A stretch of 64,000 nt of DNA, taken from the NCBI GenBank assembly GCA_040384485.1, contig JAZKJH010000002.1, positions 150,235 to 214,234 on the forward strand, in the 5' to 3' direction. The notes under the pieces were generated by a model. The model did not search any database, had not been told where the DNA came from, and saw only the letters and a program-made list of their open reading frames with translations. Shown here piece after piece: positions 2,592 through 41,948 of the stretch. The position numbers and the translations under genes are program-made. Positions within the stretch are counted from its first letter, which is position 1; each line of letters starts with the position of its first letter. Source of the stretch: Patescibacteria group bacterium. GTDB lineage: Bacteria; Patescibacteriota; Minisyncoccia; Phycocordibacterales; DATDWN01.

Positions 2592-3200
2592 TTATCTACT
2601 GTAGAACTCGATAACTGCGTTAAGATCGAACATGTTCTCAGTTTTTACATGAACTGGCATTCCCTGAACCTCTGCTGTCTTGCTTGCTGCATCGATTTTC
2701 AGCCATGATGGCATTGCCGCATTTTTGATTTTTTCGTCAATAGTTGCAAACAAAGGTTTCTTTAGAGATCTTTCTGCAATAGTTAGTTTGTCCCCTATTT
2801 TAAGTCTTCTACTTGGAGTGTTTACTCTTCTGCCGTTTACAGAAATGTGACCATGAGACACCATTTGTCTTGCACCTGATCTAGTTGGAGAAAAACCTAG
2901 TCTGTAGATAGCGTTATCAAGTCTGAGTTCTAGGAATTGGAAAATAGTTTCTGGGGTGTTGATTGCCTTTTTAAGTAGCGCTTCTTTAACGTAGCCTGAA
3001 AACTGCTTCTCACTAATACCGTATGAAAATCTAGCTTTCTGCTTCTCATTCATCTGCAGACCGAACTCAGATTTTGGTTTAGAAAATTTCTTAGATTTAC
3101 CTCTTCTTTCTAGGTGAAGAGCATACTTTTGAGTTTGAGTTTTCTCAAATATTGGTGCCCCAAGGCGTCGTGCTATTTTGTATTTTGGTCCTATTATCAT
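2592..3200 (-). CDS. rpsD: 30S ribosomal protein S4
   Basis: 202 aa MIIGPKYKIARRLG...; S4 family; synteny. Confidence 0.95.
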   Translation of the reverse strand: MIIGPKYKIARRLGAPIFEKTQTQKYALHLERRGKSKKFSKPKSEFGLQMNEKQKARFSYGISEKQFSGYVKEALLKKAINTPETIFQFLELRLDNAIYRLGFSPTRSGARQMVSHGHISVNGRRVNTPSRRLKIGDKLTIAERSLKKPLFATIDEKIKNAAMPSWLKIDAASKTAEVQGMPVHVKTENMFDLNAVIEFYSR

Positions 3201-3221
3201 AAATATATTTAAAATTGAAAA

Positions 3222-3650
3222 TTATACTCTTCTTGGTTTCTTTGGTTTTGGTCCGTTGTGAGGAACTGGAGTAACATCCTTGATACTTGTGATACTAATA
3301 CCTTTACCAATAAAACCTCTGATTCCTGACTCTCGCCCAGATCCAACTCCTTTTACAACTACAGAAGCCTCTTTCATTCCCATAGCACTTGCCTTTGCTC
3401 CTATTATTTCACCAACTTTAGCAGCTGCGAAAGGAGTACCTTTTTTTGCACCCTTGAAGCCAGTAGCTCCTGAGGAAGAAGTAGCAAGTACGTTACCTTT
3501 TGCGTCTGTAAGAACTATCTTTGTGTTGTTGTATGTTGATTGGATATTCAAAATACCTACTTCAACTTTTCTTTTTGATACAGCAGAAACAGCAGAAGAC
3601 TTCTTGTCCCCATTCCCATCTTTTGTTGTTACGATTCTTTTTTTGCCCAT
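3222..3650 (-). CDS. rpsK: 30S ribosomal protein S11
   Basis: 142 aa; S11 core motifs (...SGRESGIRGF...); synteny. Confidence 0.95.
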   Translation of the reverse strand: MGKKRIVTTKDGNGDKKSSAVSAVSKRKVEVGILNIQSTYNNTKIVLTDAKGNVLATSSSGATGFKGAKKGTPFAAAKVGEIIGAKASAMGMKEASVVVKGVGSGRESGIRGFIGKGISITSIKDVTPVPHNGPKPKKPRRV

Positions 3651-23822: not shown

Positions 23823-24518
23823 ATGCAGAGAGTTAGAATCCCAAGAGGCGGTTTGTATAGCAGATTCAATCCACCGTCCTCCCTTGAAGTTGCCTCAACT
23901 AGAATTGATGAGCTTAACAGGGAAATCGAGTACATTGAAAATTCAATTGAATTTTCGGGGCCCAAACAAGGTCAATCCGAACAGGAGTACCAAACTTGGG
24001 TTCAGAAAGCAGTCAGTGCTCTGAGCTACTTCAAAACAGAAAGAGTCTACTTAGTCACATGGACAACCCAGAACCAACCTGGTTCCGCACGTACAGACGG
24101 AACATATGCTAGTTCACTCGCGTACATTGACACTGAAGTAAGAAACTTTCTGGCCTCAGAGGAAGCAAAGTATGTTGAGTTATACTCATACTCACGTCCT
24201 GAGCCAACCAAAGAGCAAGCGATCTCTAGACGTCTTGAGCTAAACAAGCTTATGGACTATTTGGAGAAAAAAGAATTACATCTTAAAAATCTTTCCGACT
24301 CCAAGAAAATTGATATGCAGGATTGGAGATCAATCAGGAAAGGTATTTGGGATCTAAAGTCCAAAATCAAGGTTGAACAACGATATCTCAAACCCCTTGC
24401 AAGACTCGCTAATCGTTCTGGGCCAGCAGTATTTCTACTGGGACTCCTTGAACGTGCGGTATCGGAGGGCTTTAAAATGACCCCTGAAGAGGAATCCCAA
24501 TTCAAGGCTTTGCAATAA
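23823..24518 (+). CDS. hypothetical protein
   Basis: Probable start MQRVRIPRGG (AAGGAG 6 nt upstream); 231 aa, helical, no recognised domain; intermediate GC. Confidence 0.45.
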   Translation: MQRVRIPRGGLYSRFNPPSSLEVASTRIDELNREIEYIENSIEFSGPKQGQSEQEYQTWVQKAVSALSYFKTERVYLVTWTTQNQPGSARTDGTYASSLAYIDTEVRNFLASEEAKYVELYSYSRPEPTKEQAISRRLELNKLMDYLEKKELHLKNLSDSKKIDMQDWRSIRKGIWDLKSKIKVEQRYLKPLARLANRSGPAVFLLGLLERAVSEGFKMTPEEESQFKALQ

Positions 24519-24533
24519 TTTATCTAACACAAT

Positions 24534-24565
24534 CACCTTCCAGTATGCTGGAAGGTGATTTTTTT
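24534..24565 (+). terminator. intrinsic terminator (first of two in tandem)
   Basis: caccttccagtatgctggaaggtg followed by tttttttt. Confidence 0.65.
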
Positions 24566-24586
24566 GAAGTTATTGTATCTGTTGGT

Positions 24587-24614
24587 GCCCCGCAAAACAT
24601 CGCGGGGCTTTTTT
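24587..24614 (+). terminator. intrinsic terminator (second, tandem)
   Basis: gccccgcaaaacatcgcggggc followed by tttttt. Confidence 0.6.
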
Positions 24615-24619
24615 AATAT

Positions 24620-24652
24620 AAAAAAATACCACCCGGGTTTAACGCCGGGTGG
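24620..24652 (-). terminator. intrinsic terminator ending the minus-strand ABC operon
   Basis: ccacccgggtttaacgccgggtgg hairpin with U-run on the minus strand. Confidence 0.6.
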
Positions 24653-24690
24653 CTTGTATCGCACAATGCGATACTCAAACAAAGAACAAA

Positions 24691-25503
24691 TTACAAACTG
24701 GCAAACTGACCTTCGATTGCCTTGACGAAATCCGCGAATTTCTGGGTTTCAGTTACTCCCGGAATCCAGCAAAGATCAAGTGCTTTGAGATCGTAGTCCC
24801 CTACAACCCTCGCACCCGATGTCACATTCCCAGCTTCATCGTGGTCACGACCAAGCAGGATCACTCTGTCTGCCGTTGCACAGGCCATGCGAATGTCATG
24901 GGTTGTGACAATAATCGTGTTCAACTCGTGAGCATTTGCCATTTCAGTGATCAGGATTCTGGCTCTCTCCTTACCGAGGATGTCCAGGTTGGCAAATGGC
25001 TCATCCATCAGAAGAAAATGCTTTGAACACATCATCTGCTGGATAATAGCGACCCTCTGTCGTTGACCACCGGACAACTGAGACGGATAGTTTTTGACCA
25101 CACGGGTCAAGCCAAACCGTTCCAGATACTCCATGGCAATTTTTTCGCCAGTTTTTCCGCCCACAACATCCTTTTTCGAAACCTCGAAGGCTCGAACAAG
25201 GTTACCCAAAACTGTCCGTGACTCGATGAGTGGATAGTCCTGAGCAACAACACCCACTTCTCCCTGTCTTACTGGTTCAGTGTGGTTGTTAATGTAGATA
25301 CCACCTTCGGTGGGTACCTGCAGACCAGCGATGCACCGAAAGAGTTGTGTCTTACCGATGCCCGAGGGTCCGAGTAGAGCCACAATCTGTCCATAGCCAA
25401 GGGTGTTGTAAATCTCAAACTCGAGATCTTCCAAAACCTGGGTCGTTTTGAATGACAACGAAACCACTGCCCTCAATAGCCGTTCACCGACTTGGTATTC
25501 CAT
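24691..25503 (-). CDS. ABC transporter ATP-binding protein (SsuB/TauB-like)
   Basis: 270 aa; Walker A GPSGIGKT, signature LSGGQRQRV, Walker B LLMDEPFANLD; high GC. Confidence 0.85.
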   Translation of the reverse strand: MEYQVGERLLRAVVSLSFKTTQVLEDLEFEIYNTLGYGQIVALLGPSGIGKTQLFRCIAGLQVPTEGGIYINNHTEPVRQGEVGVVAQDYPLIESRTVLGNLVRAFEVSKKDVVGGKTGEKIAMEYLERFGLTRVVKNYPSQLSGGQRQRVAIIQQMMCSKHFLLMDEPFANLDILGKERARILITEMANAHELNTIIVTTHDIRMACATADRVILLGRDHDEAGNVTSGARVVGDYDLKALDLCWIPGVTETQKFADFVKAIEGQFASL

Positions 25504-26375
25504 TATTTTTTTCCTCCCTCACGAAGACCAGCCCATGGAAAAATCTTTCGAGCCTTCACAAAACCGAAGTCAATGAGAAGACCGACAATCCAAAGAAGAA
25601 TCTGGATGGCGTAAACTTCATCCAAATTCCAGGTTCTCTGGGAATTCAAAAGTAGTGTACCAACACCACCTTCGGACCTGGCGATACCTTCCACAGCGGT
25701 CAGCATCATCCAGCCCATTGCCTGGTTCTGACGAAGAATTTCAAGCATTTCAGAGGCACGACCCCGAAGGTCTGTCTCGTACATTGCCTGCCATTCTGAC
25801 ATCCCCATCGTTCGCATGTAATCTCGCTCGGCTTGGGGAACGGCATCAACCATTCTTGCCCAGCCAGCGATACAAAATGCACCCACAAACACAACCAAGA
25901 TAGACAGCTTTAAGCTGTGTGCCCCGGAGGTGTAGTAAGTCAAAATGAGAGTAATACCGGCAGTGCTCAAAAACCTGAAGTTTCCAAACACAGTCACGAT
26001 ACCCTTTGTCACCGACAAACTTCTTGCAATGACTGTCAAAATCCCGATTGGGATAAGGATCAGAATCATTTGAAAGTTGAGTGTCAGACTGACAATAAGT
26101 TCTCTTCCGAGAGCGTTCTCGGTCCAGAGCTTTCCAATTGCATCAACAATTGAAACAGGTCCTGGGAATGTCGACTCAGGAATCATCATCCAAAATCCAA
26201 TTGCAATTGCAATGTGGACAAGAGTGATGACTCGCATCGCCGAACTTGGCAAAGGGACATGCGGCAAGAAAGCTGCAATAGCTTTCCTTCCCCATGTGTT
26301 TGCATTAGCAACACGAAGATTCAAACTCGGTTCTACCGACATTGCAACATCGCGTTTTTTCGACTCTTCTGACAT
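25503..26375 (-). CDS. ABC transporter permease (SsuC/TauC-like)
   Basis: 290 aa; 6 TM; start overlaps the ATPase stop by 1 nt. Confidence 0.8.
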   Translation of the reverse strand: MSEESKKRDVAMSVEPSLNLRVANANTWGRKAIAAFLPHVPLPSSAMRVITLVHIAIAIGFWMMIPESTFPGPVSIVDAIGKLWTENALGRELIVSLTLNFQMILILIPIGILTVIARSLSVTKGIVTVFGNFRFLSTAGITLILTYYTSGAHSLKLSILVVFVGAFCIAGWARMVDAVPQAERDYMRTMGMSEWQAMYETDLRGRASEMLEILRQNQAMGWMMLTAVEGIARSEGGVGTLLLNSQRTWNLDEVYAIQILLWIVGLLIDFGFVKARKIFPWAGLREGGKK

Positions 26376-26571
26376 TTTGCCCTTCCTTTGTAAAAAACTG
26401 TAACTGTCAAAGATCTAATCGTGGACTGATTTTTAAACCCTTCCACCAAACCACTTTCCTGTACTCATTTCTGAATACTTGAAAGGGACTTGGAAAAGGG
26501 TCCGATAGCTGAGCAAGCCCAACTATCGGACCGTAGATTAACCTTATCTTCTACAAGGTGTTAAAGAACAA

Positions 26572-28449
26572 TTATCGACCGATGGTGATTTCCACCCGTC
26601 GATTCCGTGCTCGTTCCGAAGCCAAGTTCTGATTGGCTTCCGGACTGAGAGGCCGGTCGGGACCCATGCCTGACGCGTTCAAGCGTCGGGTATCAATGGC
26701 CCCTCGGGCAATCGCGAGAATCTCCCTTTTCACGCTTTCGGCGCGACGGAAAGACAAACTGCGATTCAAGTCAGCAGACCCCGTGTTGTCCGTATGACCG
26801 ACGATGTCGGCCTTCAGGTTACCGGTTGCAAGCTGACGGTAAATCATTTCGATGGTTGAGAACGAACTGGGGAGTACCCGGTCCGAGCCAACTTCGAAAT
26901 TGATTGCGTAGCTGGTGTTACCAACAACTTCCGATACTGCACCTTCAGAAACGGCTGCAACATCGGCTTTGCCAGCATTCACACCAAGTACTTCGTTCGC
27001 CTTGGCAAGAGCACCCAACTCGAGGATTTCATCCACGGGCTGAAGCTTCTTGATAACAGTCGGCGCAAGATCATGGATCATGGCGCCATACTGTTCATAG
27101 ACGGCAGCGTAAATGTTTGCGCCACCATCCAGACCGTAGTACTGCATCGCATCAGCGTTGTTCCAGACTCGGCTTCCACCGAACTGAACGTCGTATCCCG
27201 CCTTGTTACGATGCCGAACACTCTTGTAAACCTGGACCCATCCGGGCTTTTCAGAAGTACCCTGGGCTGCGAGACCACCCTGGCCCTTGTAAACCAATAC
27301 AGCCATCTCAGCTGCACGCGTAAGCGCAGCGTCTGACGACTTGATCATGTCACTGGCTTCCGAGGTGCCTGCGAAAATCGCCGAAAGTGAATCAACGTTC
27401 TGCTTGCTCCAACCACGAATGGTCAGAACAGTTGACGCCATCTGGTTCAGGTTCTCTCGAGTTGAGATAGCTGAGACCAGTGTATCGCGACTTCCCTTTG
27501 CCATATTGAAATCGGCGGGGCTCCACGATGCAAATGCTTCAACGCAGACGTTCTTCTTTTCGCCGGTGGGTTTTCCGTTGCGGATTACCACTCGTTCTTC
27601 GCAATAAGCGGTGTTGTACTTCTCGACTGCGTCGAGGAAGTCACTGGAATTGAGAAAGTTCACAGCATCAGGATCCCAGGTTTTTTCATCCGGGTTGACC
27701 TTGAGGCCATTCACTTGCGCCCAAAACAGTGCCAGAAGATGGTCACCGTCCCAGAAGTAGTTGGCGATGAGCCCGCCGTTCTCGGTGTTTTTACCGAGAG
27801 CCATTTCGGGCTGGTCCTTCCACTTCACAGGAACGAAAACCTGATCTTCACCGTAGGAAGAACCCACAGCTCCTGCAACAACAACTTCGCAATCCCGTTC
27901 GGGAAGCTTGTTGTCCTTGCAAATCTGACGCATGACTTCGTTCCACTGAGCAATGTAGGCCGGGCCTCCATCACCCATCACGATGACAGCCTGAACTCCA
28001 GCTTCGGGATTTCCCCCTCCACCATTTTCCGCCCATGCTTTCGCAAAGGCAGTGAGTTCATTCTTCATCTGGTTGGTGTCATCTTCGTTGATGAGCTTCA
28101 GATAGGCTCCCCGCTTACCGATGGTTGAATCCGTCAAAGTGACGGGACCGCCATTGGCAAGAAAAAGACCGAACTGTGCGCTCCACTTCATAACATGAAG
28201 TCGAATCTCCTTATTGGCGTTCCGCGTTGCGGGACGACCAGTGGGAAGAACAACCTTCACGTTTGTTGCGACATTGGTACCGACTTCACTGGAGCCAAGC
28301 TCCACTGCCTTCGGCACAGCTGCCTCCCGAATCTTGCGATACGGAAGAAGACTGTCCTGGAAATACCAGCCAAGAGCAACGAGGATGAGAACAAAAGCGA
28401 CTTTGGGAACAATTCCCAGTTTCTGCAGAAAACTCATAACACGCTCCAC
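26572..28449 (-). CDS. periplasmic substrate-binding-protein-like domain fused to a C-terminal OmpA/MotB peptidoglycan-binding domain
   Basis: 625 aa; N-terminal anchor; C-terminal motif GHTDNTGSADLNRSLSFRRAESVKREI...NRRVEI is classic OmpA_C; the central ~450 aa resemble the NMT1/SsuA-type binding fold (tentative). Confidence 0.6.
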   Translation of the reverse strand: MERVMSFLQKLGIVPKVAFVLILVALGWYFQDSLLPYRKIREAAVPKAVELGSSEVGTNVATNVKVVLPTGRPATRNANKEIRLHVMKWSAQFGLFLANGGPVTLTDSTIGKRGAYLKLINEDDTNQMKNELTAFAKAWAENGGGGNPEAGVQAVIVMGDGGPAYIAQWNEVMRQICKDNKLPERDCEVVVAGAVGSSYGEDQVFVPVKWKDQPEMALGKNTENGGLIANYFWDGDHLLALFWAQVNGLKVNPDEKTWDPDAVNFLNSSDFLDAVEKYNTAYCEERVVIRNGKPTGEKKNVCVEAFASWSPADFNMAKGSRDTLVSAISTRENLNQMASTVLTIRGWSKQNVDSLSAIFAGTSEASDMIKSSDAALTRAAEMAVLVYKGQGGLAAQGTSEKPGWVQVYKSVRHRNKAGYDVQFGGSRVWNNADAMQYYGLDGGANIYAAVYEQYGAMIHDLAPTVIKKLQPVDEILELGALAKANEVLGVNAGKADVAAVSEGAVSEVVGNTSYAINFEVGSDRVLPSSFSTIEMIYRQLATGNLKADIVGHTDNTGSADLNRSLSFRRAESVKREILAIARGAIDTRRLNASGMGPDRPLSPEANQNLASERARNRRVEITIGR

Positions 28450-28541
28450 TGTTAAACTGTTTACGAAATTAGGTTTGTATCACCACCAGTTCACTTTGAA
28501 CTAGTGGTGATACGTTAGAGAAAAAATTCTTCTTCCTCTTC

Positions 28542-29651
28542 TTAACGAGGGGGGAGAAGACTGCCAAAACGATCTGTCGGTTCAGAAGTCTGGCTGACCT
28601 TTCGGGCAACCGGAACTTCTTCCCCAACTCTCGATCTGGCTTCGATGAGAAGTACTGGATCGCGATTCTCCGCCAACTGTCGCTGACCTTCAGCAAACGT
28701 TGACATGGAATCAACACGGCCTGTCAGTTCACGAATCAAATCTTCTTCGCCAATGGCGTCGTCAATCTGACCCGCAACCAGTTGCCCCCTAACCGTGTTC
28801 ATAACGCCTTCAGCTTCGGCAATCCACTGATCGGTCTGCTGCATCATGCTCTGTGCAGTCATCTCGAACAGCTTGGTCTTTTCGTCCTTACCAAGGATTC
28901 CCTTCAGATCATCGGCACCTTGTGCCAAGTCCTCAGCTGATTCGTAATCCTGGACCATCATCTCAACATTGAATCGAGTAACCTCGATAATTGAAGTGAT
29001 GACCCCCTGCAACTGCGTCAGAAGAGCAACATAGCCCTTCTGAACCAGCAACCGTTTTTCGAGCTTGGCAACTGCGCCTGTCAGAGAACGAATCTTCTGA
29101 CTGAGAACTCGAAATTCGGTCTGCAGTTTACTGTCCGTCCACTTACGGCCCCCATCGGAGCTTCCGTGTTCGACGCAATATTCTGCACGCCGCTTTGCTT
29201 CTGCGAGACTCGTCTGGGTCTCTTCCAACCTACGTTGTGCCGATTTTTCACGGCCAACCGCACGATCAAGAACTTCCTGGTTTTTTGCACCCTTCGGTTC
29301 GAGATAGTGAGTAACGTATGACCTGGAGCGAGTGACGGGGTCAACCTGTGCGATTTTCAAAGCAAAGGCATCAACCCATCCCATGAACAAGTACCACGCT
29401 GCTGCCTGAACCTTGGGGTTCATGACAAAAGCGCCGATTGTTCCGATGATGGCGAGCATGCCGCCCAGAACTAGCAGTTTGTATCCTGCTTCGATTCCGA
29501 GCGTTGCAAAGTTGATAATGTAAGGCAGAACGAACGTTCCAATCCCCACGATACCAGCTGCATAAGCCCCGCCAACAATCCAACGCCAAACCTTCTCTTT
29601 TCCAAGAAGGAATTTCGGCTTTGATCCAACCAACTCAGGCAAATTCGACAT
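28542..29651 (-). CDS. hypothetical membrane protein, 2-3 N-terminal TM plus long coiled-coil cytoplasmic domain
   Basis: 369 aa; start codon abuts the stop of the upstream gene (coupled); AAGGAG RBS; no confident family (TelA/XpaC- or PspA-like is only a guess). Confidence 0.5.
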   Translation of the reverse strand: MSNLPELVGSKPKFLLGKEKVWRWIVGGAYAAGIVGIGTFVLPYIINFATLGIEAGYKLLVLGGMLAIIGTIGAFVMNPKVQAAAWYLFMGWVDAFALKIAQVDPVTRSRSYVTHYLEPKGAKNQEVLDRAVGREKSAQRRLEETQTSLAEAKRRAEYCVEHGSSDGGRKWTDSKLQTEFRVLSQKIRSLTGAVAKLEKRLLVQKGYVALLTQLQGVITSIIEVTRFNVEMMVQDYESAEDLAQGADDLKGILGKDEKTKLFEMTAQSMMQQTDQWIAEAEGVMNTVRGQLVAGQIDDAIGEEDLIRELTGRVDSMSTFAEGQRQLAENRDPVLLIEARSRVGEEVPVARKVSQTSEPTDRFGSLLPPR

Positions 29652-30383
29652 CTACTGCTCCTTTGATGAAACAAAACTCAACAAACGCTTGTACTCTTCC
29701 GTACGAGCGGACACGGTAGCGCTAAAGCGACTACGGGGTCCATCGTATTTTGCTGTCACAGTTGAAAGCTCAACTTGGAGCTGTGCAACCTGTGATTGAA
29801 GTTGAGTGCGTTCGGCCACAAGACGGGCCATATCCGCATCAACTTCCTTGGTGCGATTTTCCAAGTCGGAAATAGTCGCACTTTTGTCTCGAGTTTCCTC
29901 ACTCTCACGTTTCCTCGCTTCATCCATATAGGACGCCTCGAAGGTTGAGAGTAAACGCATACGCTCACCAACACTCTTTGCGATTTGTTGTGCATTGAGT
30001 CTTGGATTTGAGGCTGACACTGCTGCCAGCGCCGCACGTGTGCACTGAACTCGATCGGTTATTACGCCAGACAAGGCATTGAACTGTGCCATGAACTCTT
30101 TGAGACCAGGTTCTTTCGATTCCTGATCCAAAGCGTTACTGATCACAGCGTCAAACTCCTTATCCACTGTTGGTTGCGAAGCCGAGCCAATGCTCGAAAT
30201 CACACCGGTCGTCCGCTGAAAAATTGACGCGGACGGACCCAAAGGAACTCCTGCCATTACGGCTGGAACTCTCTGAACAGGGCGTGATGAAACAGAAGTA
30301 TTTTGTCCTCGCGGTACGTCTGCTTCATCCGGTTCCGGAGTTTCTTCTCCATCACCTTTCCAGAACAATCCTTTCAAACCCAT
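29652..30383 (-). CDS. hypothetical coiled-coil protein with Pro/Ser-rich N-terminal linker
   Basis: Start MGLKGLFWKG (AGGAGAAAAGAGGA upstream), 243 aa; the ORF-track N-terminal extension lacks an RBS. Confidence 0.5.
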   Translation of the reverse strand: MGLKGLFWKGDGEETPEPDEADVPRGQNTSVSSRPVQRVPAVMAGVPLGPSASIFQRTTGVISSIGSASQPTVDKEFDAVISNALDQESKEPGLKEFMAQFNALSGVITDRVQCTRAALAAVSASNPRLNAQQIAKSVGERMRLLSTFEASYMDEARKRESEETRDKSATISDLENRTKEVDADMARLVAERTQLQSQVAQLQVELSTVTAKYDGPRSRFSATVSARTEEYKRLLSFVSSKEQ

Positions 30384-30473
30384 CTTTATCCTCTTTTCTC
30401 CTAAAACAAAAACATTGACAACGAACTTACACAAAAAAAGAGACTTTTGTCTCCAAAATGTACCTAATTAAAA

Positions 30474-30502
30474 TAATAGCAGTTATATGTACAACTGTCA
30501 AG
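30474..30502 (-). promoter_or_regulatory. near-consensus sigma70 promoter for the coiled-coil/ABC operon (TTGACA-17-TATTAT)
   Basis: Minus strand: TTGACAgttgtacatataactgcTATTAT. Confidence 0.45.
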
Positions 30503-30543
30503 GCTTACCAAGTTGCCAAAAACGTGTTATTTATGGCCGTAGT

Positions 30544-30571
30544 TTGACACAATCAATATATGTATTATCAT
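30544..30571 (+). promoter_or_regulatory. sigma70-like promoter for the divergent small gene (TTGACA-16-TATCAT)
   Basis: agtTTGACAcaatcaatatatgtatTATCATtc about 20 nt before the ATG at 30591. Confidence 0.4.
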
Positions 30572-30590
30572 TCATGATAGAGGGCAACAA

Positions 30591-30905
30591 ATGAGTAAAT
30601 TGACAGATGAAGTCGAACGAGCTGCGGAGTACGTCGAGACTAAGATCGAGAACCTGGCTGAAGCGATTCAGTCAATTGTAGCCAAGGGAATGTCCTACGA
30701 CCTGGAAATTCGCAAAAACGGAGTGAAGGTCCACAACATGCCTACGACAGTGGCTGGCATCCTTGCTGGACTCAGCTTCCTCCCGCCATTCCGACTAGCG
30801 GGTCTTGCTGGCCTTGCAGGCGCAACTCTTCAAGGGTATACCTTCCATCTTCGGCAGGTTACTCCACCCAAAGGAACCGGCGCTTCCTGGCTGAAGGAAA
30901 CCTAG
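30591..30905 (+). CDS. hypothetical small protein with C-terminal hydrophobic/Gly-Leu-Ala repeat segment
   Basis: 104 aa; LAGLAGLAGATL repeat; high GC; divergent from the ABC operon. Confidence 0.45.
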   Translation: MSKLTDEVERAAEYVETKIENLAEAIQSIVAKGMSYDLEIRKNGVKVHNMPTTVAGILAGLSFLPPFRLAGLAGLAGATLQGYTFHLRQVTPPKGTGASWLKET

Positions 30906-30942
30906 TACAAAATCAGACCCGTAACATTGTTTTTATGAAAAA

Positions 30943-30967
30943 GTCCGTCGCATGACGGACTTTTTTT
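30943..30967. terminator. bidirectional intrinsic terminator
   Basis: aaaaa gtccgtcgcatgacggac ttttttt. Confidence 0.6.
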
Positions 30968-30978
30968 ATTTAAATACT

Positions 30979-31557
30979 CTAGTAGACCTTTCTTCCCCAA
31001 CTCACAAACTTGTTTTGCCATTTAACTATAGACTCAGGAGATATTTTTTTCATCGGTCCAACTTTTTTCATCTTGGTGTGAATGCCAGAAAACCAGAGAA
31101 TACCGTCTTGGATTTCGTTAGTATTGTCCCCAAACAACATCCTGGCTACAAGTGGCGGAGAATCAGAAGTCACAAACACCGTTGCTGTTCTTCCCTTCAA
31201 AAGTCTTTTCCACCCCATTCCATTTTTATTAAAATTGTATGCAAAGCCAGGTAACCACATCCGGTCAAACATTCCTTTGAGTAGTGCTGGCATAGTTGAC
31301 CACCATGACGGATATACAATAACCAAATGTTCACACCATTTTATGTCCTCTTGGAGTTGTTTTAAGTCCGGCTCAAGCTGTTGAATAACTTTGTAGCCCT
31401 TATGGAGTATCGGATCAAATTTCAAATCGCCCAAGTTAACTCTTTTTACCTCATGCCCAGCCGATACAGCACCTTCTGCATATTTATCACAAAAAGATCT
31501 TCCTAAACTTTCACTATCGGGGTGTCCCAGCAATACTAAGACTTTTTTATTGACCAT
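30979..31557 (-). CDS. flavodoxin-fold NAD(P)H dehydrogenase (quinone)-like protein (NQO1/KefF/MdaB family)
   Basis: 192 aa; VLVLLGHPDSESLGRSF...; family-typical layout. Confidence 0.7.
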   Translation of the reverse strand: MVNKKVLVLLGHPDSESLGRSFCDKYAEGAVSAGHEVKRVNLGDLKFDPILHKGYKVIQQLEPDLKQLQEDIKWCEHLVIVYPSWWSTMPALLKGMFDRMWLPGFAYNFNKNGMGWKRLLKGRTATVFVTSDSPPLVARMLFGDNTNEIQDGILWFSGIHTKMKKVGPMKKISPESIVKWQNKFVSWGRKVY

Positions 31558-39016: not shown

Positions 39017-39682
39017 TTACCTGTCACTTCTGGTCGGGTTTTCGAAGAAGTCATCCTTGGTGCTCTTGAACACGTTCAAGCTGATTTTTTCGAGCAGTGT
39101 GCTGATTCTCCGATAAATCCAACGAACAAGCTTCTTCAGAGGTTCGTCAAGGAAATACCCGACCACACTCCACGGCCAGAACAAAATCCAAAGATAAATC
39201 TCGGATTTGTGCTCATTTGGACTCGGATGCACGACCCCATTGTTACCGATCTTGAGCTTGACCTCCCGACCATAGTCGGTTTCCCTACGGATGTGATCAA
39301 GCCACTCTTTCTTAAAAGCGTCCGGAACCTTGTTACCTTCGACACCTCTTAACTTAAGAAACTCTCTACGGATGTCGTCGTATCTCTCAAAGATGCGAGT
39401 GACAAATCGCCACCATTTACCTACCGCCCATACCGCACCAATGACAAAGTATGAGAGGAAGTAAAATGACGCCTGAAGTGGGTTTTGAATGATCCAAGAA
39501 AACTGCAGAACACCGGCGTAGTAAAGAACCAAGGTTATCACCACAAACGAGATTGTAGTGTACCCGGGCCAGTCGTTTTCGACAAAGACCCCCATTAGGA
39601 TCCATGCGGCTGCAAACAATATCCAAAACGCTACCGTTCCGAATGCGAAAAAAGCAAGTAACCCTGCGAACAACTCACCCAT
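39017..39682 (-). CDS. hypothetical Trp-rich polytopic membrane protein (high GC)
   Basis: 221 aa; 4-5 TM, many W/Y; no domain recognised. Confidence 0.5.
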   Translation of the reverse strand: MGELFAGLLAFFAFGTVAFWILFAAAWILMGVFVENDWPGYTTISFVVITLVLYYAGVLQFSWIIQNPLQASFYFLSYFVIGAVWAVGKWWRFVTRIFERYDDIRREFLKLRGVEGNKVPDAFKKEWLDHIRRETDYGREVKLKIGNNGVVHPSPNEHKSEIYLWILFWPWSVVGYFLDEPLKKLVRWIYRRISTLLEKISLNVFKSTKDDFFENPTRSDR

Positions 39683-39800: not shown

Positions 39801-40550
39801 TTACACTTTATAAATAGAGTTTAGTAAACCAATTTTATTTAAAATTTCTGCGTAATTTTCGACTGTCATTTTTTCATATCCCAAACTATCTAATAAATTA
39901 ATAAATTCAGAGATTGCATAATCATAATAACGCAAGGTCATTGAAAGTCTGAGCTCGTTCTGGTTTTCTTCTGTTAGTTTCAGCATTGCCTCCCCGACTA
40001 AATTTTTCCAATACTGATCAATTAGATTAGCATATTTTCTACACATTGCAGTATTTTCCGAACCCGGATAGTTAAGTGATAACAAAATACCACCAGGCAA
40101 GGAAATCAAATCCTCGCTTCTTTCATTTCCTAATATATTAATTATATCCATCAACGAGATTTTATTTGAAGAAACTTGCTCTACTTGAGTATACTTATCA
40201 ACAATGCTTCTTGCCATTGTTCTTACCTCATCTGAAACTCCCGGAGGCAGGTCTTCCTCCTTAAAGATAACTTCTGAAATATTGCTATCCGGGTGACTAT
40301 GCCAACTATTCTCAATATTAGGTGGAAACTCTGTCGATATTTCACTATCGCCAACTTGATAATAGAAACCAATTTTTGAAGATTTTCTTGCAACAAAACC
40401 ATGCGCCTCGTTACTATTTGCTTTCCTTATTTCCTCCATGCGACTATACATTTCCTCCGGTGATTCGAATACTTCAAGAGTGTACCCTTCTATTTTATCA
40501 AAACCCTCACTCTCATTGGATTCGTAAACTTCAAAATTTTTCATGTACAA
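39801..40550 (-). CDS. hypothetical protein
   Basis: 249 aa; acidic; low GC like the backbone; no domain recognised. Confidence 0.5.
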   Translation of the reverse strand: MYMKNFEVYESNESEGFDKIEGYTLEVFESPEEMYSRMEEIRKANSNEAHGFVARKSSKIGFYYQVGDSEISTEFPPNIENSWHSHPDSNISEVIFKEEDLPPGVSDEVRTMARSIVDKYTQVEQVSSNKISLMDIINILGNERSEDLISLPGGILLSLNYPGSENTAMCRKYANLIDQYWKNLVGEAMLKLTEENQNELRLSMTLRYYDYAISEFINLLDSLGYEKMTVENYAEILNKIGLLNSIYKV

Positions 40551-40695
40551 ATTTTAACGCATTGGCTGGATAATTACTAATTCAACTTACGTTATCTCTG
40601 GACTTCCGTATTAACTGTTTTGGTTGGTATCAAAGCATTGTTTCGTCTTCCATAAAATCAAAAAGTCTGGAATTAACCAGACTTTTTACATTTTG

Positions 40696-40768
40696 TGGAC
40701 CCGACAGGACTCGAACCTGCCACCCCATCATTGCAAATGATGTGCTCTACCAGATGAGCTACGGGCCC
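40696..40768 (-). tRNA. tRNA-Ala (anticodon TGC)
   Basis: Minus-strand gggcccgtagctcatctggtagagcacatcatttgcaatgatggggtggcaggttcgagtcctgtcgggtcca folds as a cloverleaf with G3:U70, anticodon loop tTGCa, T-loop TTCGAGT; CCA not encoded. Confidence 0.85.
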
Positions 40769-40860
40769 GTATTAAACTTTGAAACACCTACATATCTATC
40801 CTACAATTCACAATCATTTGTGCAAATGATGGTCGCAAATATTTTTCTGGTGAAAAATTT

Positions 40861-40945
40861 GGCGACCCCACCACGGCTCGTCAGCCTCCGGCCTTGCGGT
40901 CTGGATCCTAACCAGACCTCACTCCACCAGATGAGCTACGGGCCC
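40861..40945 (-). other. tRNA-Ala 5'-half pseudo-copy with a GC-rich structured insert (not a complete tRNA)
   Basis: Minus strand begins gggcccgtagctcatctggtGgag, identical to the first 20 nt of the tRNA-Ala 130 nt downstream; it then continues into a perfect 6-bp hairpin gtctgg-ttaggat-ccagac and gccggaggCTGACGAgccgtggtggggtcgcc; no matching acceptor 3' strand. Confidence 0.35.
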
Positions 40946-41027
40946 AACATACTCAGTAACAATTTAATATTTTACACTATTTTGTATTGAAAGCAAGGTC
41001 ACTATTTTGTATTATAAAGTCTATTAA

Positions 41028-41098
41028 GGGCTTGTAGTATAGTAGTAACACGCGTCCATGGCATGGACGAGTCCGGAGTGCGATTCTCCGCAGGTCCA
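41028..41098 (+). tRNA. tRNA-Ala (anticodon GGC), atypical T-loop
   Basis: gggcttgta...cgtcc atGGCat ggacg ...cggag tgcgatt ctccg caggtcca: acceptor with G3:U70, anticodon GGC; T-loop reads TGCGA (G at position 55) and the D-stem has a mismatch. Confidence 0.55.
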
Positions 41099-41100
41099 CA

Positions 41101-41139
41101 AAAAGCAAAAGACTTTCCTAAACGGAAAGTCTTTTGCTT
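41101..41139. terminator. perfect 17-bp hairpin (terminator-like)
   Basis: aaagcaaaagactttcc taaac ggaaagtcttttgcttt. Confidence 0.55.
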
Positions 41140-41306
41140 TGATGGAAGACGGAGCAGGCATCTACTCAGCAGAGTGGGTCGCGAGTCAGGGTCGTGGAAA
41201 CTTTGTTTTGACGATAACAAAATTATCCCTGACCACAAATAAATTGACAAAATCTAAATATTATGTATAGTTCTAAATAGATTTATTGGTTCCGAAGGAG
41301 TAACGG

Positions 41307-41948
41307 ATGGCAGATGTGGTAACTAAGTTAGTGACTGATGAGGGGTCGCTCTATACCCTTTTCGACACTGTATGCGACCAATTTACGAGTCCCGCCCTCC
41401 CAATCCGGGATTTGGCGATCAAACTTCGTGAGAATGCTTCCATGAGCGAATGGATGCAGTGGGCACAAAACACTGAACACGTCTTCGACTTGAGACGTGT
41501 TACGATTCGGAAGAGGTTAAGTTACCTGACTGAGCTTAAGTCTGGTAGATCGCTCACTGACCCACAAGCTATCGAATTATACGAGTTATACCGATTTCTT
41601 CACGGCACGGTGGCGCCTCATCAGTACGAGTACCCAGAAATTGGGCGACAAGTGATCGAGAGATGGTTGACCGAGATGGACATGAGATCCAGATATCCCG
41701 AAGGATGGGATTGCTTGGATATCCTAAACGACAGAGTCGTCTATTGCACACTCCACAACCCTTGGGCTCGGAAACAATATCCAAATACCACAGAATTTTC
41801 GTTCACGCCGACCCCGGAGGAAAACAAACTCACTGGTCTATATGTGAGCCGGTTGGCAACGCTTGGACAGATTGCAGGAGTCAAGAGACTGAAACCTGCA
41901 GAAATCATTCAGAAGTTTCTTGGGAAGCAGCGAGTTACAAACTTGTGA
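41307..41948 (+). CDS. hypothetical protein (high GC) immediately downstream of the tRNA cluster
   Basis: 213 aa; GGAG RBS; near-consensus promoter TTGACAaaatctaaatattatgTATAGT about 40 nt upstream; no domain recognised. Confidence 0.5.
   Translation: MADVVTKLVTDEGSLYTLFDTVCDQFTSPALPIRDLAIKLRENASMSEWMQWAQNTEHVFDLRRVTIRKRLSYLTELKSGRSLTDPQAIELYELYRFLHGTVAPHQYEYPEIGRQVIERWLTEMDMRSRYPEGWDCLDILNDRVVYCTLHNPWARKQYPNTTEFSFTPTPEENKLTGLYVSRLATLGQIAGVKRLKPAEIIQKFLGKQRVTNL

Follow-up and report, generated by a model that had tools for sequence, protein, structure and literature searches.

A conserved structured module at the tRNA-Ala loci of Patescibacteria, fused in one of its forms to pieces of the neighbouring tRNA gene

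Why does a GC-rich, hairpin-forming sequence lie between two pieces of a tRNA just upstream of an intact copy of that tRNA gene? The question is raised by a stretch of 64,000 nucleotides (nt) from a Patescibacteria group bacterium (contig JAZKJH010000002.1, positions 150,235 to 214,234; hereafter, the window). Both of its tRNA genes called by ARAGORN and Rfam are for alanine: tRNA-Ala(UGC) on the minus strand and, divergent from it, tRNA-Ala(GGC) on the plus strand (Table 1), as an earlier reading made without database searches (the sequence-only reading) had described. That reading took the locus mainly for the scar of recombination or integration at a tRNA gene, or else for a small tRNA-derived mobile or structured RNA element. 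We found that the insert belongs to a family of structured elements of 85-125 nt that is conserved at the tRNA-Ala loci of one clade of Patescibacteria. Our preferred but tentative interpretation, to which we give a probability of roughly 40%, is that this module is a structured RNA domain transcribed with the tRNA-Ala units.

The unit upstream of tRNA-Ala(UGC), here called the composite (40821-40945, minus strand), consists of a copy of tRNA nt 1-24, a hairpin (hairpin A), the module core and a copy of tRNA nt 27-37, in this order, and ends 52 nt upstream of the tRNA gene. The nt 1-24 copy and the gene are 177 nt apart from start to start, with a gap of 153 nt. The sequence-only reading had recognized the duplication, the hairpin with its 7-nt loop and the copy of the anticodon arm, but its measures need correction: the duplicate is 24 nt long rather than 20, the gap is 153 nt rather than 130, the stem gtctgg/ccagac extends to 7 bp from 6, and the anticodon-arm copy is an exact 11-mer and not degenerate. 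Two matches to the tRNA 5′ piece arose in none of 100 shuffles of the window. Only nt 1-24 and 27-37 of the tRNA are represented in the pseudo-copy. The spacer between the composite and the gene resembled tRNA nt 38-73 no better than shuffled sequences did, and neither ARAGORN nor Rfam (E up to 10 included) called a tRNA at 40861-40945, the check that the sequence-only reading had proposed. In this upstream (U) type of module, TGA is followed by hairpin A, GCAAG, a helix P2, GG, and a helix P3 with a hairpin C (40867 down to 40831). P2 is formed by GCC (40890-40892) with GGT (40870-40872) and encloses GGAG, a hairpin B (40876-40885) and CGT.

Related loci are numbered with an L. A metagenome scan with the exact 3′ 47 nt of tRNA-Ala(UGC) gave 13 loci (L005-L017), and a further set (L078, L079 and L080) was fetched by homology to the Ddl protein encoded near the tRNA genes, independently of the tRNA sequence. 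The composite, 5′ piece plus module, recurs upstream of tRNA-Ala(UGC) in L011, L016, L006, L079 and L080. In L011, L016 and L006, it lies directly upstream of an identical tRNA and reads 5′ piece, hairpin, GCAAG, GC-rich core, GTGAC and CATCATTTGCA. L079 (Ddl 68% identical to the window's) has the window-type composite in tandem with a period of 178 nt, and its contig ends inside the repeat. L080 (Ddl 64%) has the composite upstream of a tRNA-Ala(UGC) of different sequence. The nt 27-37 copy is present with the composite in L011, L016, L006 and L079 and absent in L080. Altogether, the U-type homologues of the window module are in L011, L016 (two), L006, L079 (two) and L080. Hairpin A occurs in versions with compensating changes: GGTCTGG/CCAGACC, GGTTTGG/CCAAACC, GATTGGG/CCCAATC and ACTTGGG/CCCAAGT.

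The 73-nt sequence of tRNA-Ala(UGC) is identical in L003 and the 13 metagenome loci, 100% conserved while the Ddl proteins of those contigs are only ~50-65% identical to the window's. Where the tRNA lies with respect to ddl and a gene of the PLD family varies among these contigs (L003, L005-L017). This identity suggests unusually strong conservation or horizontal spread of a tRNA cassette.

The structure of the module was derived with MAFFT and RNAalifold from 13 copies, which gave two helices, and a covariance model (R1) was then built. This model of the core covers 21 copies in 14 loci. The strand before P2 is purine-rich and GNRA-like (GGAA, GAAA, GCAA or GGGA). P2 is a helix of 3 bp around a hypervariable hairpin B (10-44 nt) and an internal loop in which GGAG, ACAG or GCAG faces CGA. 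Two purines link P2 to P3, which has the form GGUCG.../...YGACC with a conserved G-U pair and is capped by the variable hairpin C. In the model-fitted alignment, 96.9% of the pairing cells pair, and 14 of the 18 pairs show changes on both sides (73 cells), counts that lean towards structure because the alignment is fitted to a model and the sequences are related. In the shuffle control, the observed value was reached in 0 of 500 shuffles on four of the five measures and in 1 of 500 on the pair-type count; controls with slid partners paired at 37-53% only. Minimum-free-energy folds of single copies gave the same two-helix core. The helices are thus upheld by compensatory changes beyond both controls, as is the case for a structured RNA or single-stranded DNA (ssDNA) motif in general. 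A closing helix P1, which makes a three-way junction, was convincing only in L017 (0 of 300 shuffles), L013, L020 and the opposite-strand (R-type) copy of L011. It was absent in the window copy at 41136-41244 and the R-type copy of L005, and in the U type a local hairpin takes its place. As P1 is upheld in only part of the family, we claim the two-helix core alone.

The GC content of the module is 0.54 in a region of 0.38; GC-richness is typical for structured RNAs in AT-rich genomes. None of the 4227 families of Rfam 15 matches the module, none at E<0.05 in permissive scans, and no described Patescibacteria tRNA-Ala motif of relevance was found in the literature. It is solid that this family is absent from Rfam and that it is conserved, strand-specific, structured and tied to Patescibacteria tRNA-Ala loci. 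The genomes of Patescibacteria are tiny and contain little that is non-coding. A ~100-nt non-coding element that is kept in 2-4 copies around one tRNA with compensatory changes in such tight genomes therefore likely does something.

These results bear directly on the scar that the sequence-only reading had preferred, a unique and functionless remnant of integration or recombination decaying at a tRNA gene. Partial tRNA copies beside a tRNA gene are a classic mark of integrase-mediated insertion; the window has such a copy, and one of its modules is truncated (40615-40659). However, at least five other lineages, with Ddl proteins only ~50-75% identical to the window's, have conserved the composite. 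The divergent flanking genes exclude the related loci as assembly artefacts of a single organism. The core is found 21 times with compensatory helix changes, and the flanks of the composite are kept while its spacers are randomised. Like attL/attR integration sites in tRNA genes, the locus has direct repeats of tRNA parts bracketing inserted DNA and variable genes of foreign composition nearby. It differs from them in that the 5′ end is duplicated where such elements usually use the 3′ part, in the short segment between the repeats (~150 nt), in the lack of an integrase domain in the flanking open reading frames (ORFs) of the window and L005-L014, and in a conserved folded core whose arrangement is common to distant lineages. 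A lineage-specific insertion is not what we see: although the composite is missing in the relatives L005, L010, L013 and L014, the copies that exist are orthologous and diverged. Conservation of the arrangement in related genomes, which the sequence-only reading had itself named as speaking against a scar, was found, and we regard this origin as very improbable.

The tRNA-derived flanks are better conserved than anything around them. While module identity between lineages is 72-88% and the spacers are not alignable, the nt 27-37 copy is identical at 11 of 11 positions in the window, L011, L016 and L006, and the nt 1-24 copy at 23-24 of 24 between lineages; the fragment heading the unit in L011 and L079 is 24/24. 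In L080, where the tRNA carries T7 (GGGCCCTTAG...), the upstream fragment has the same T7. Flanks kept while spacers diverge exclude a freely decaying pseudogene. Their identity would be maintained either by selection or by gene conversion with the neighbouring gene.

Such cognate-identical segments amid diverging surroundings are among the points that favour an intron-like or alternative fold, in which the tRNA-Ala 5′ half (nt 1-37) carries a structured insert at the hinge between the D-arm and the anticodon stem. The tRNA-identical segments would pair with the 3′ half of the downstream tRNA, as a precursor-folding switch or a split-tRNA-like partner. The fragment of L080 follows the acceptor-stem change of its own tRNA, the copy stops at nt 37 in L011, L016 and L006, the window and L079 keep a degenerate 3′ strand of the anticodon arm (ATGAT after a 3-nt insertion), and both ends of the insert adjoin at the foot of the folded structure. 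In archaea, non-canonical tRNA introns and split tRNAs likewise have structured inserts at this hinge (L016 has two related inserts) and 5′ pieces ending at nt 37, the canonical intron or split position. They differ from the present case, which is in a bacterial host with no visible bulge-helix-bulge, no 3′ half, an intact tRNA following and modules that stand free. Indeed, no bulge-helix-bulge could be read at the junctions and removal of the module leaves a discrepancy of 1-2 nt, so there are no precise splice junctions. The unit has no accompanying 3′ half, L080 lacks the nt 27-37 piece, the first module of L016 disrupts the D-stem, the other types of module, D and R, have no tRNA 5′ fragment at all, and gene conversion with the adjacent gene could explain the flank identity. 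We therefore hold the intron-like fold to be improbable.

Least probable of all is that the module belongs to an RNA class already described: a hammerhead or other self-cleaving ribozyme, a permuted transfer-messenger RNA (tmRNA), 5S RNA, signal recognition particle (SRP) RNA, a T-box or a TIGR (tandem interspaced guide RNA) array. The window copy has the string CTGACGAG, a hammerhead was suggested by CUGACGAG, and Rfam gave weak permuted-tmRNA matches (11-21 bits), which cover the tRNA 3′ half only. Against this, no Rfam family matched the module at E<0.05 and ARAGORN found no tmRNA. The CUGAnGA-like string ggCTGACGAgcc, which the sequence-only reading had pointed out, sits in the non-conserved hairpin B, with GGCTGGCGAGCC, GACCGACGGGTC and CCGAGACGG in homologues. 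As a hammerhead candidate it was rejected: CTGACGA occurs in the window only, the homologues reading CTGGCGA, CCGACGG and CCGAGAC, and no Rfam ribozyme matched at E up to 10. In TIGR arrays, tandem units of ~36 nt carry box C/D-like motifs, and a Tas gene, which encodes a Nop domain, is adjacent (PMC12045711). Both are absent here; the unit length is 85-240 nt and no ORF with a Nop domain is nearby.

Several other identities were tried and rejected. No odd complete tRNA or tmRNA was called by ARAGORN for the pseudo-copy, and pairing GGGCCCG with UGGGGUC leaves a G-G mismatch with no covariation in L080. The likeness to 5S and SRP RNA (GGGGUC...CGAGAG; GUCAGG.CUCGAAGG) was judged coincidental, because the Rfam models give nothing. 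A K-turn, a sarcin-ricin motif and a T-loop do not fit the GGAG/CGA loop in strand lengths and sequences. A group I intron needs at least ~200 nt, and the module of 85-125 nt has no Intron_gpI match, while the same scan finds a group I intron in L002 with 65.8 bits. Apart from this intron, Rfam scans of the window region and the related loci at gathering and permissive thresholds returned only tRNAs and chance-level matches.

The family is tightly bound to one kind of locus. All 20 Patescibacteria copies adjoin tRNA-Ala genes or fragments. Every solid match in the window and L002-L017 (181 kb) is at a tRNA-Ala locus, and this holds for ~205 kb of Patescibacteria sequence. An intact module lies behind tRNA-Ala(UGC) in L078 (Ddl 75% identical), and related cores lie behind the tRNA terminator in L010, L011, L013 and L005. 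Opposite-strand, R-type cores are upstream of the tRNA in L005, L011 and L014. With the exception of these, a module is on the same strand as the tRNA gene or sense fragment directly upstream of it. The cores of L017, L014, L005 and L002 are nested in a helix formed by the tRNA 3′ 17 nt and an inverted copy. Modules that share a position in different loci are more alike than those within one locus, which points to old paralogues that have stayed in their places. Scanning for exact patterns of the module found nothing in metagenome contigs or viral contigs. Degenerate patterns in viral contigs gave 55 mostly chance matches, including a chance coding match (L018) and one true remote copy (L020).

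The window itself holds 2.5 modules, two full and one truncated, and repeat and model searches found no further copies in its 64 kb. The second full module is of D type, with GGAA, P2 (GAC/GTC) around GGAG, hairpin B and CGA, then AG, and P3 (GGTCG.../...TGACC) with hairpin C. It is orthologous to L005 1888-1996 and had escaped the sequence-only reading, as had the 25 nt beyond each tRNA terminator (40639-40663 and 41132-41156), which are inverted copies of each other (84%). A hairpin orthologous to the terminator at 41102-41140 was found by locus comparison in L005.

Table 1. Features of the tRNA-Ala locus in the window
Feature	Position	Strand	Basis or remark
Truncated module behind tRNA-Ala(UGC); keeps 5′ junction GGAAGACG and hairpin B, without helix P3	40615-40659	-	Weak model match 40546-40659, E=0.54
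Intrinsic terminator hairpin of tRNA-Ala(UGC), AAAAAGTCTGG/CCAGACTTTTT then U-run	40660-40687	-	Inverted repeat; terminator-like site
tRNA-Ala(UGC), canonical, G3:U70	40695-40768	-	ARAGORN; Rfam tRNA 63.9 bits
AT-rich spacer from composite to tRNA-Ala(UGC)	40769-40820	-	Identity between lineages ~45%, not alignable
Exact 11-mer copy of tRNA-Ala nt 27-37, CATCATTTGCA	40821-40831	-	Directly 3′ of module; chance expectation ~0.04 per window
GC-rich module, U type	40832-40921	-	Model R1 match 40821-40904, 64.6 bits, E ~2e-18; covariation
Hairpin A, 7 bp GGTCTGG/CCAGACC, 7-nt loop TTAGGAT	40898-40918	-	Read in sequence
Copy of tRNA-Ala nt 1-24 (acceptor 5′ strand and D-arm)	40922-40945	-	23/24 against 40745-40768, sole change A21G
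Candidate promoter of composite/tRNA-Ala(UGC) unit, TTGCTT-16-TAAAAT	40969-40996	-	Read from sequence, below scan threshold; inferred
Promoter-like site for tRNA-Ala(GGC), TTGAAA-17-TATTAT	40987-41015	+	Scan, 10/12 matches
tRNA-Ala(GGC), G3:U70	41028-41099	+	ARAGORN; Rfam 48.1 bits, one non-standard D-stem pair
17-bp hairpin with U-run, terminator of tRNA-Ala(GGC)	41102-41140 (41102-41118/41124-41140)	+	100% complementary inverted repeat
Second full module, D type, behind tRNA-Ala(GGC) and its terminator	41136-41244	+	Model R1 87.3 bits, E ~1e-25
Near-consensus promoter TTGACA-16-TATAGT directly after D-type module	41244-41271	+	Scan, 11/12 matches
213-amino-acid ORF, GC 0.48 against ~0.39 in window	41307-41948	+	Lineage-specific cargo beside module

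If the preferred reading is right, the module would be a folded RNA domain made together with the tRNA-Ala units. The family would have arisen by tandem and inverted duplication of a tRNA-Ala/hairpin/module unit and would have been reshuffled by recombination among the copies. The composite, between a tRNA-type promoter and the tRNA, would form a leader of ~180 nt that is removed by RNase P, and the copies behind terminators would be transcribed by read-through. A protein-binding or precursor-folding domain is a candidate role. The architecture, the GC-richness, the common orientation with the tRNA units, the promoter arrangement of the composite and the old positional orthology all argue for RNA. 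The candidate promoter of the composite lies 23 nt ahead of the 5′ fragment in the window, and L079 has this pair of motifs conserved ahead of its unit as well. The composite of L080 starts 10 nt past a tRNA-type promoter (TTGTGT-17-TAATCT), whose type and spacing are also found at intact tRNA genes elsewhere, for example in L013; the real tRNA of L080 has its own promoter, TTTACA-18-GATAAT, in the spacer. Our promoter scan of the window found no site directly upstream of the real tRNA-Ala(UGC), and transcription therefore probably passes through the composite.

In several respects the module resembles the candidate structured non-coding RNA motifs of the Weinberg/Breaker type, which come from comparative genomics. 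Both form GC-rich islands within AT-rich intergenic regions, with conserved unpaired junctions, compensatory helices, variable hairpin tips and a narrow phylogenetic range, and both are positioned by tRNA genes; some large motifs of this type, such as GOLLD and ROOL, lie near tRNAs. The module differs in having several paralogous copies per locus, on both strands and many of them behind terminators, in having no match in Rfam 15, and in that one of its types is fused to exact pieces of the neighbouring tRNA.

A number of observations weigh against the RNA reading. Most copies lie directly behind good intrinsic terminators, so that little read-through RNA is expected, and there is no tRNA on the strand of the R-type copies (L005, L011 and L014), nor could a promoter for them be seen by eye. 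These terminator-trailing and promoterless copies are the main weakness of an RNA-only reading. Six loci (L003, L007, L008, L009, L012 and L015) have the identical tRNA without a module, and the module is thus not needed for tRNA-Ala function. The remote copy L020 (38.6 bits) is in a tandem array on a GC-rich contig with no tRNA within 3.3 kb. The modelled strand pairs better than its complement (96.1% and 90.3%) because G-U cells outnumber A-C cells (20 vs 4), but G-T pairs are tolerated in folded ssDNA, so that this bias cannot separate RNA from ssDNA. The covariation counts, too, come from a model-fitted alignment of related sequences. Finally, the tandem, inverted, recombinant and truncated copies (L016, L079, L006, L013 and the window remnant) would also be expected of a selfish or recombinogenic DNA element.

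The array of L020 (IMGVR_UViG_3300033463_005745, 2880-3319, minus strand), a GC-rich version of the module, has at least 2-3 tandem units with a period of ~240 nt and lies beside cysE, galE and cdd. Ahead of each unit is a small hairpin whose loop motif, AAACTGCTTT, also occurs in the Patescibacteria copies.

The main rival, which we judge to be somewhat unlikely, is a non-autonomous mobile or recombination module of DNA that targets tRNA-Ala genes, acting as folded ssDNA or as the site for a recombinase encoded elsewhere. Its targeting would create partial tRNA duplications, tandem arrays and inversions, and a hotspot for foreign gene cassettes. Rearrangement of this kind is visible. In L016, two diverged modules lie in one pseudo-tRNA (nt 1-10, module a, nt 13-24, module b, nt 27-37) at look-alike sites, GTAG-CT-CATC and GTAGAG-CA-CATC, and L006 is a recombinant of L016-type modules a and b. 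A cassette of promoter, tRNA, terminator and module (~330 nt) is cleanly inverted between the same flanking terminator hairpins in L013 as compared with L010. The units of L079 are identical in tandem and L020 is a tandem array. In L005 and L014, a module lies between direct repeats of 15-17 nt from the tRNA 3′ end. The two other copies of the window resemble products of exchange or truncation: the remnant at 40615-40659 and the intact module that the closest relative, L078, has behind this tRNA match in hairpin B, and P3 and hairpin C of 41136-41244 are nearly identical to those of L078 but joined to a different hairpin B, which suggests exchange between inverted copies. Presence among loci with identical tRNAs is patchy, copies lie behind terminators or without promoters, and GC-richer genes that lack homologues and have their own strong promoters adjoin modules (window, L008, L011 and L017). 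Mobile DNA uses this tRNA in relatives, as a GIY-YIG ORF lies between duplicated 5′ ends in L003.

Other results are hard to reconcile with such an element. No transposase, integrase, recombinase or nuclease gene was found among the ~50 ORFs of the window and the loci that were scanned, and no copy lies away from tRNA-Ala in the ~205 kb. Copies at each position are old orthologues and not recent insertions. Beyond a few bases, there are no target-site duplications or terminal inverted repeats. Known transposon ends and attC sites do not look like the strongly conserved unpaired junctions and the 3-bp helix with its fixed internal loop. With the palindrome-associated transposable elements of IS200/IS605 and with repetitive extragenic palindromes and bacterial interspersed mosaic elements, the module shares strand-specific hairpins, conserved bases at the hairpin feet, GTAG by the left junction, and tandem and inverted copies. 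It differs in being confined, in the sequence searched, to one locus instead of being dispersed, and in its fixed 3-bp helix, internal loop and GNRA-like junction; no module was found away from tRNA-Ala in 64 kb of the genome and ~140 kb of relatives, and no TnpA(Y1) or RAYT gene in the sequence searched. An integron attC site was rejected on account of the two-helix architecture, the strong promoters that adjacent genes have of their own, and no intI being seen; no attC boxes (GTTRRRY/RYYYAAC) were seen on reading the aligned copies, for which no pattern search was run.

The ends of the inverted cassette of L010 and L013 show a short inverted similarity, TTTTGGTAT.. and ..GTGACCACAAA. The contigs L001, L078, L079 and L080, four independent assemblies, break inside or beside the tRNA-Ala/module region, which fits a repeated or rearranging sequence.

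The elements in L003 and L002 show that the tRNA genes of these bacteria attract mobile DNA. Such elements, homing-endonuclease genes (of the free-standing GIY-YIG type of phage T4 SegB) and tRNA group I introns, are like the module in being carried at this locus by relatives and differ from it in that the module is non-coding, far too small and without an Intron_gpI signal. In L003 (Zambryskibacteria metagenome-assembled genome (MAG) SIBV01000005, 3485-3900), an ORF of 87 amino acids with a GIY-YIG domain and weak homing-endonuclease matches lies between two tRNA-Ala 5′ ends. Both 5′-end copies are interrupted by the same perfect palindrome of 37-38 nt (CCCTCACATGGA...TCCATGTGAGGG), with repeats of GGCCCGTAGC, 9-10 nt long, on either side of it; the downstream tRNA is intact. 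In L002 (Saccharibacteria MAG CAYXDY010000026, 6407-6900, minus strand), a group I intron runs into the 3′ half of a tRNA that lies directly upstream of tRNA-Ala(UGC), and an ORF for an HNH endonuclease is just upstream of the intron. A tRNA of these bacteria thus bears a mobile intron.

A bolder form of the RNA reading, which we consider improbable, concerns the composite at 40821-40945. It might be a separately promoted, previously undescribed RNA in which a tRNA-Ala 5′ portion identical to the cognate tRNA is fused to a folded domain and acts on tRNA-Ala. It might, for instance, gate maturation by competing with or pairing to the tRNA 3′ half in a shared precursor, or it might partner tRNA halves, and the free-standing copies of the folded domain might bind the same factor as the composite. 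If so, Patescibacteria would have a new class of regulatory RNA that is linked to a tRNA. More generally, if the module is RNA, it would add a new class of structured RNA from a branch of bacteria that has been little studied, its tRNA-fused version hinting at a direct interplay with tRNA-Ala maturation. If it is DNA, it would represent a recombination module of a new kind, targeted to a tRNA, and would explain why genes without homologues gather at the locus and why metagenome assemblies break there, several contigs ending inside it. The covariance model provides a handle for annotating tRNA-Ala/module loci in either case. The second suggestion of the sequence-only reading, a tRNA-derived mobile or structured RNA element, was thus broadly right about a structured family tied to tRNA-Ala, with RNA somewhat favoured over DNA.

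The same reading had drawn attention to the 17-bp hairpin, the near-consensus promoter and the GC-rich ORF that follow tRNA-Ala(GGC), all of which were found, and had read the ORF together with the rest of the locus. This ORF, at 41307-41948, is outside the conserved unit: it is lineage-specific, with no homologue beside tRNA-Ala in the compared loci. A search of 5.8 billion proteins returned only its self-match, and there was no Pfam, NCBIfam or PHROG match. Its AlphaFold2 model has a pLDDT of 48.9. As a recombinase it was rejected for want of homologues and domains and for its low-confidence structure model. Promoters of the TTGACA kind also follow modules in L011, L016 and L017. The ORFs flanking the tRNA pair at 39801-40550 and 39017-39682 (both minus strand) also had no Pfam, NCBIfam or PHROG match, and the genes beside the tRNA vary between related loci. 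L010, L013 and L014 have small conserved GC-rich ORFs without a family match on differing sides and strands of the tRNA, encoding an arginine-rich protein of ~100 amino acids, one of 115 and others of ~85.

The peculiarities of tRNA-Ala(GGC) that had been described earlier (G3:U70, a G55 T-loop and an imperfect D-stem) are seen in the Rfam alignment. The T-loop is UGCGAUU (G55; GUGC in place of GUUC) with C56 kept, the D-loop AGUAGUA is without G18G19, and the D-stem has one mismatch. The suggestion that the gene is decaying did not hold, as it scores well as a tRNA (48.1 bits). The non-proteinogenic tRNA-Gly species for the cell wall of S. aureus are without the same elbow nucleotides, G18G19 and U55 (PMC4574755). 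Like these substrates of Fem transferases, tRNA-Ala(GGC) lacks G18G19 and U55, and it lies near the cell-wall gene ddl; it differs in keeping C56, and no FemAB/MurM-type genes were found among the 30 window ORFs scanned. The likeness to cell-wall tRNAs is a resemblance only, to be taken as a possible lead.

In the window, the locus lies among chromosomal genes of an ordinary kind: uvrA, uvrB, a uvrC-like gene, ddl, a PLD-family gene, tgt, yceG and xseA. The closest relatives of the PLD protein are in Zambryskibacteria and Saccharibacteria MAGs (61-63% identity). A Logan contig of SRR26324625 is 100% identical to the window over 5,252 bases and begins within tRNA-Ala(UGC). Farther away, at 24000-31000, there is a 7-kb block with a GC content of 0.45-0.53 against ~0.38, which contains ABC-transporter genes, a gene for an OmpA-domain protein of 625 amino acids and two large domainless ORFs, and may be acquired DNA. 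Between the divergent tRNA units, an exact 14-nt direct repeat, CACTATTTTGTATT, occurs at 40975-40988 and 41000-41013 (plus strand), 25 nt apart, and overlaps the -10 regions of both candidate promoters there.

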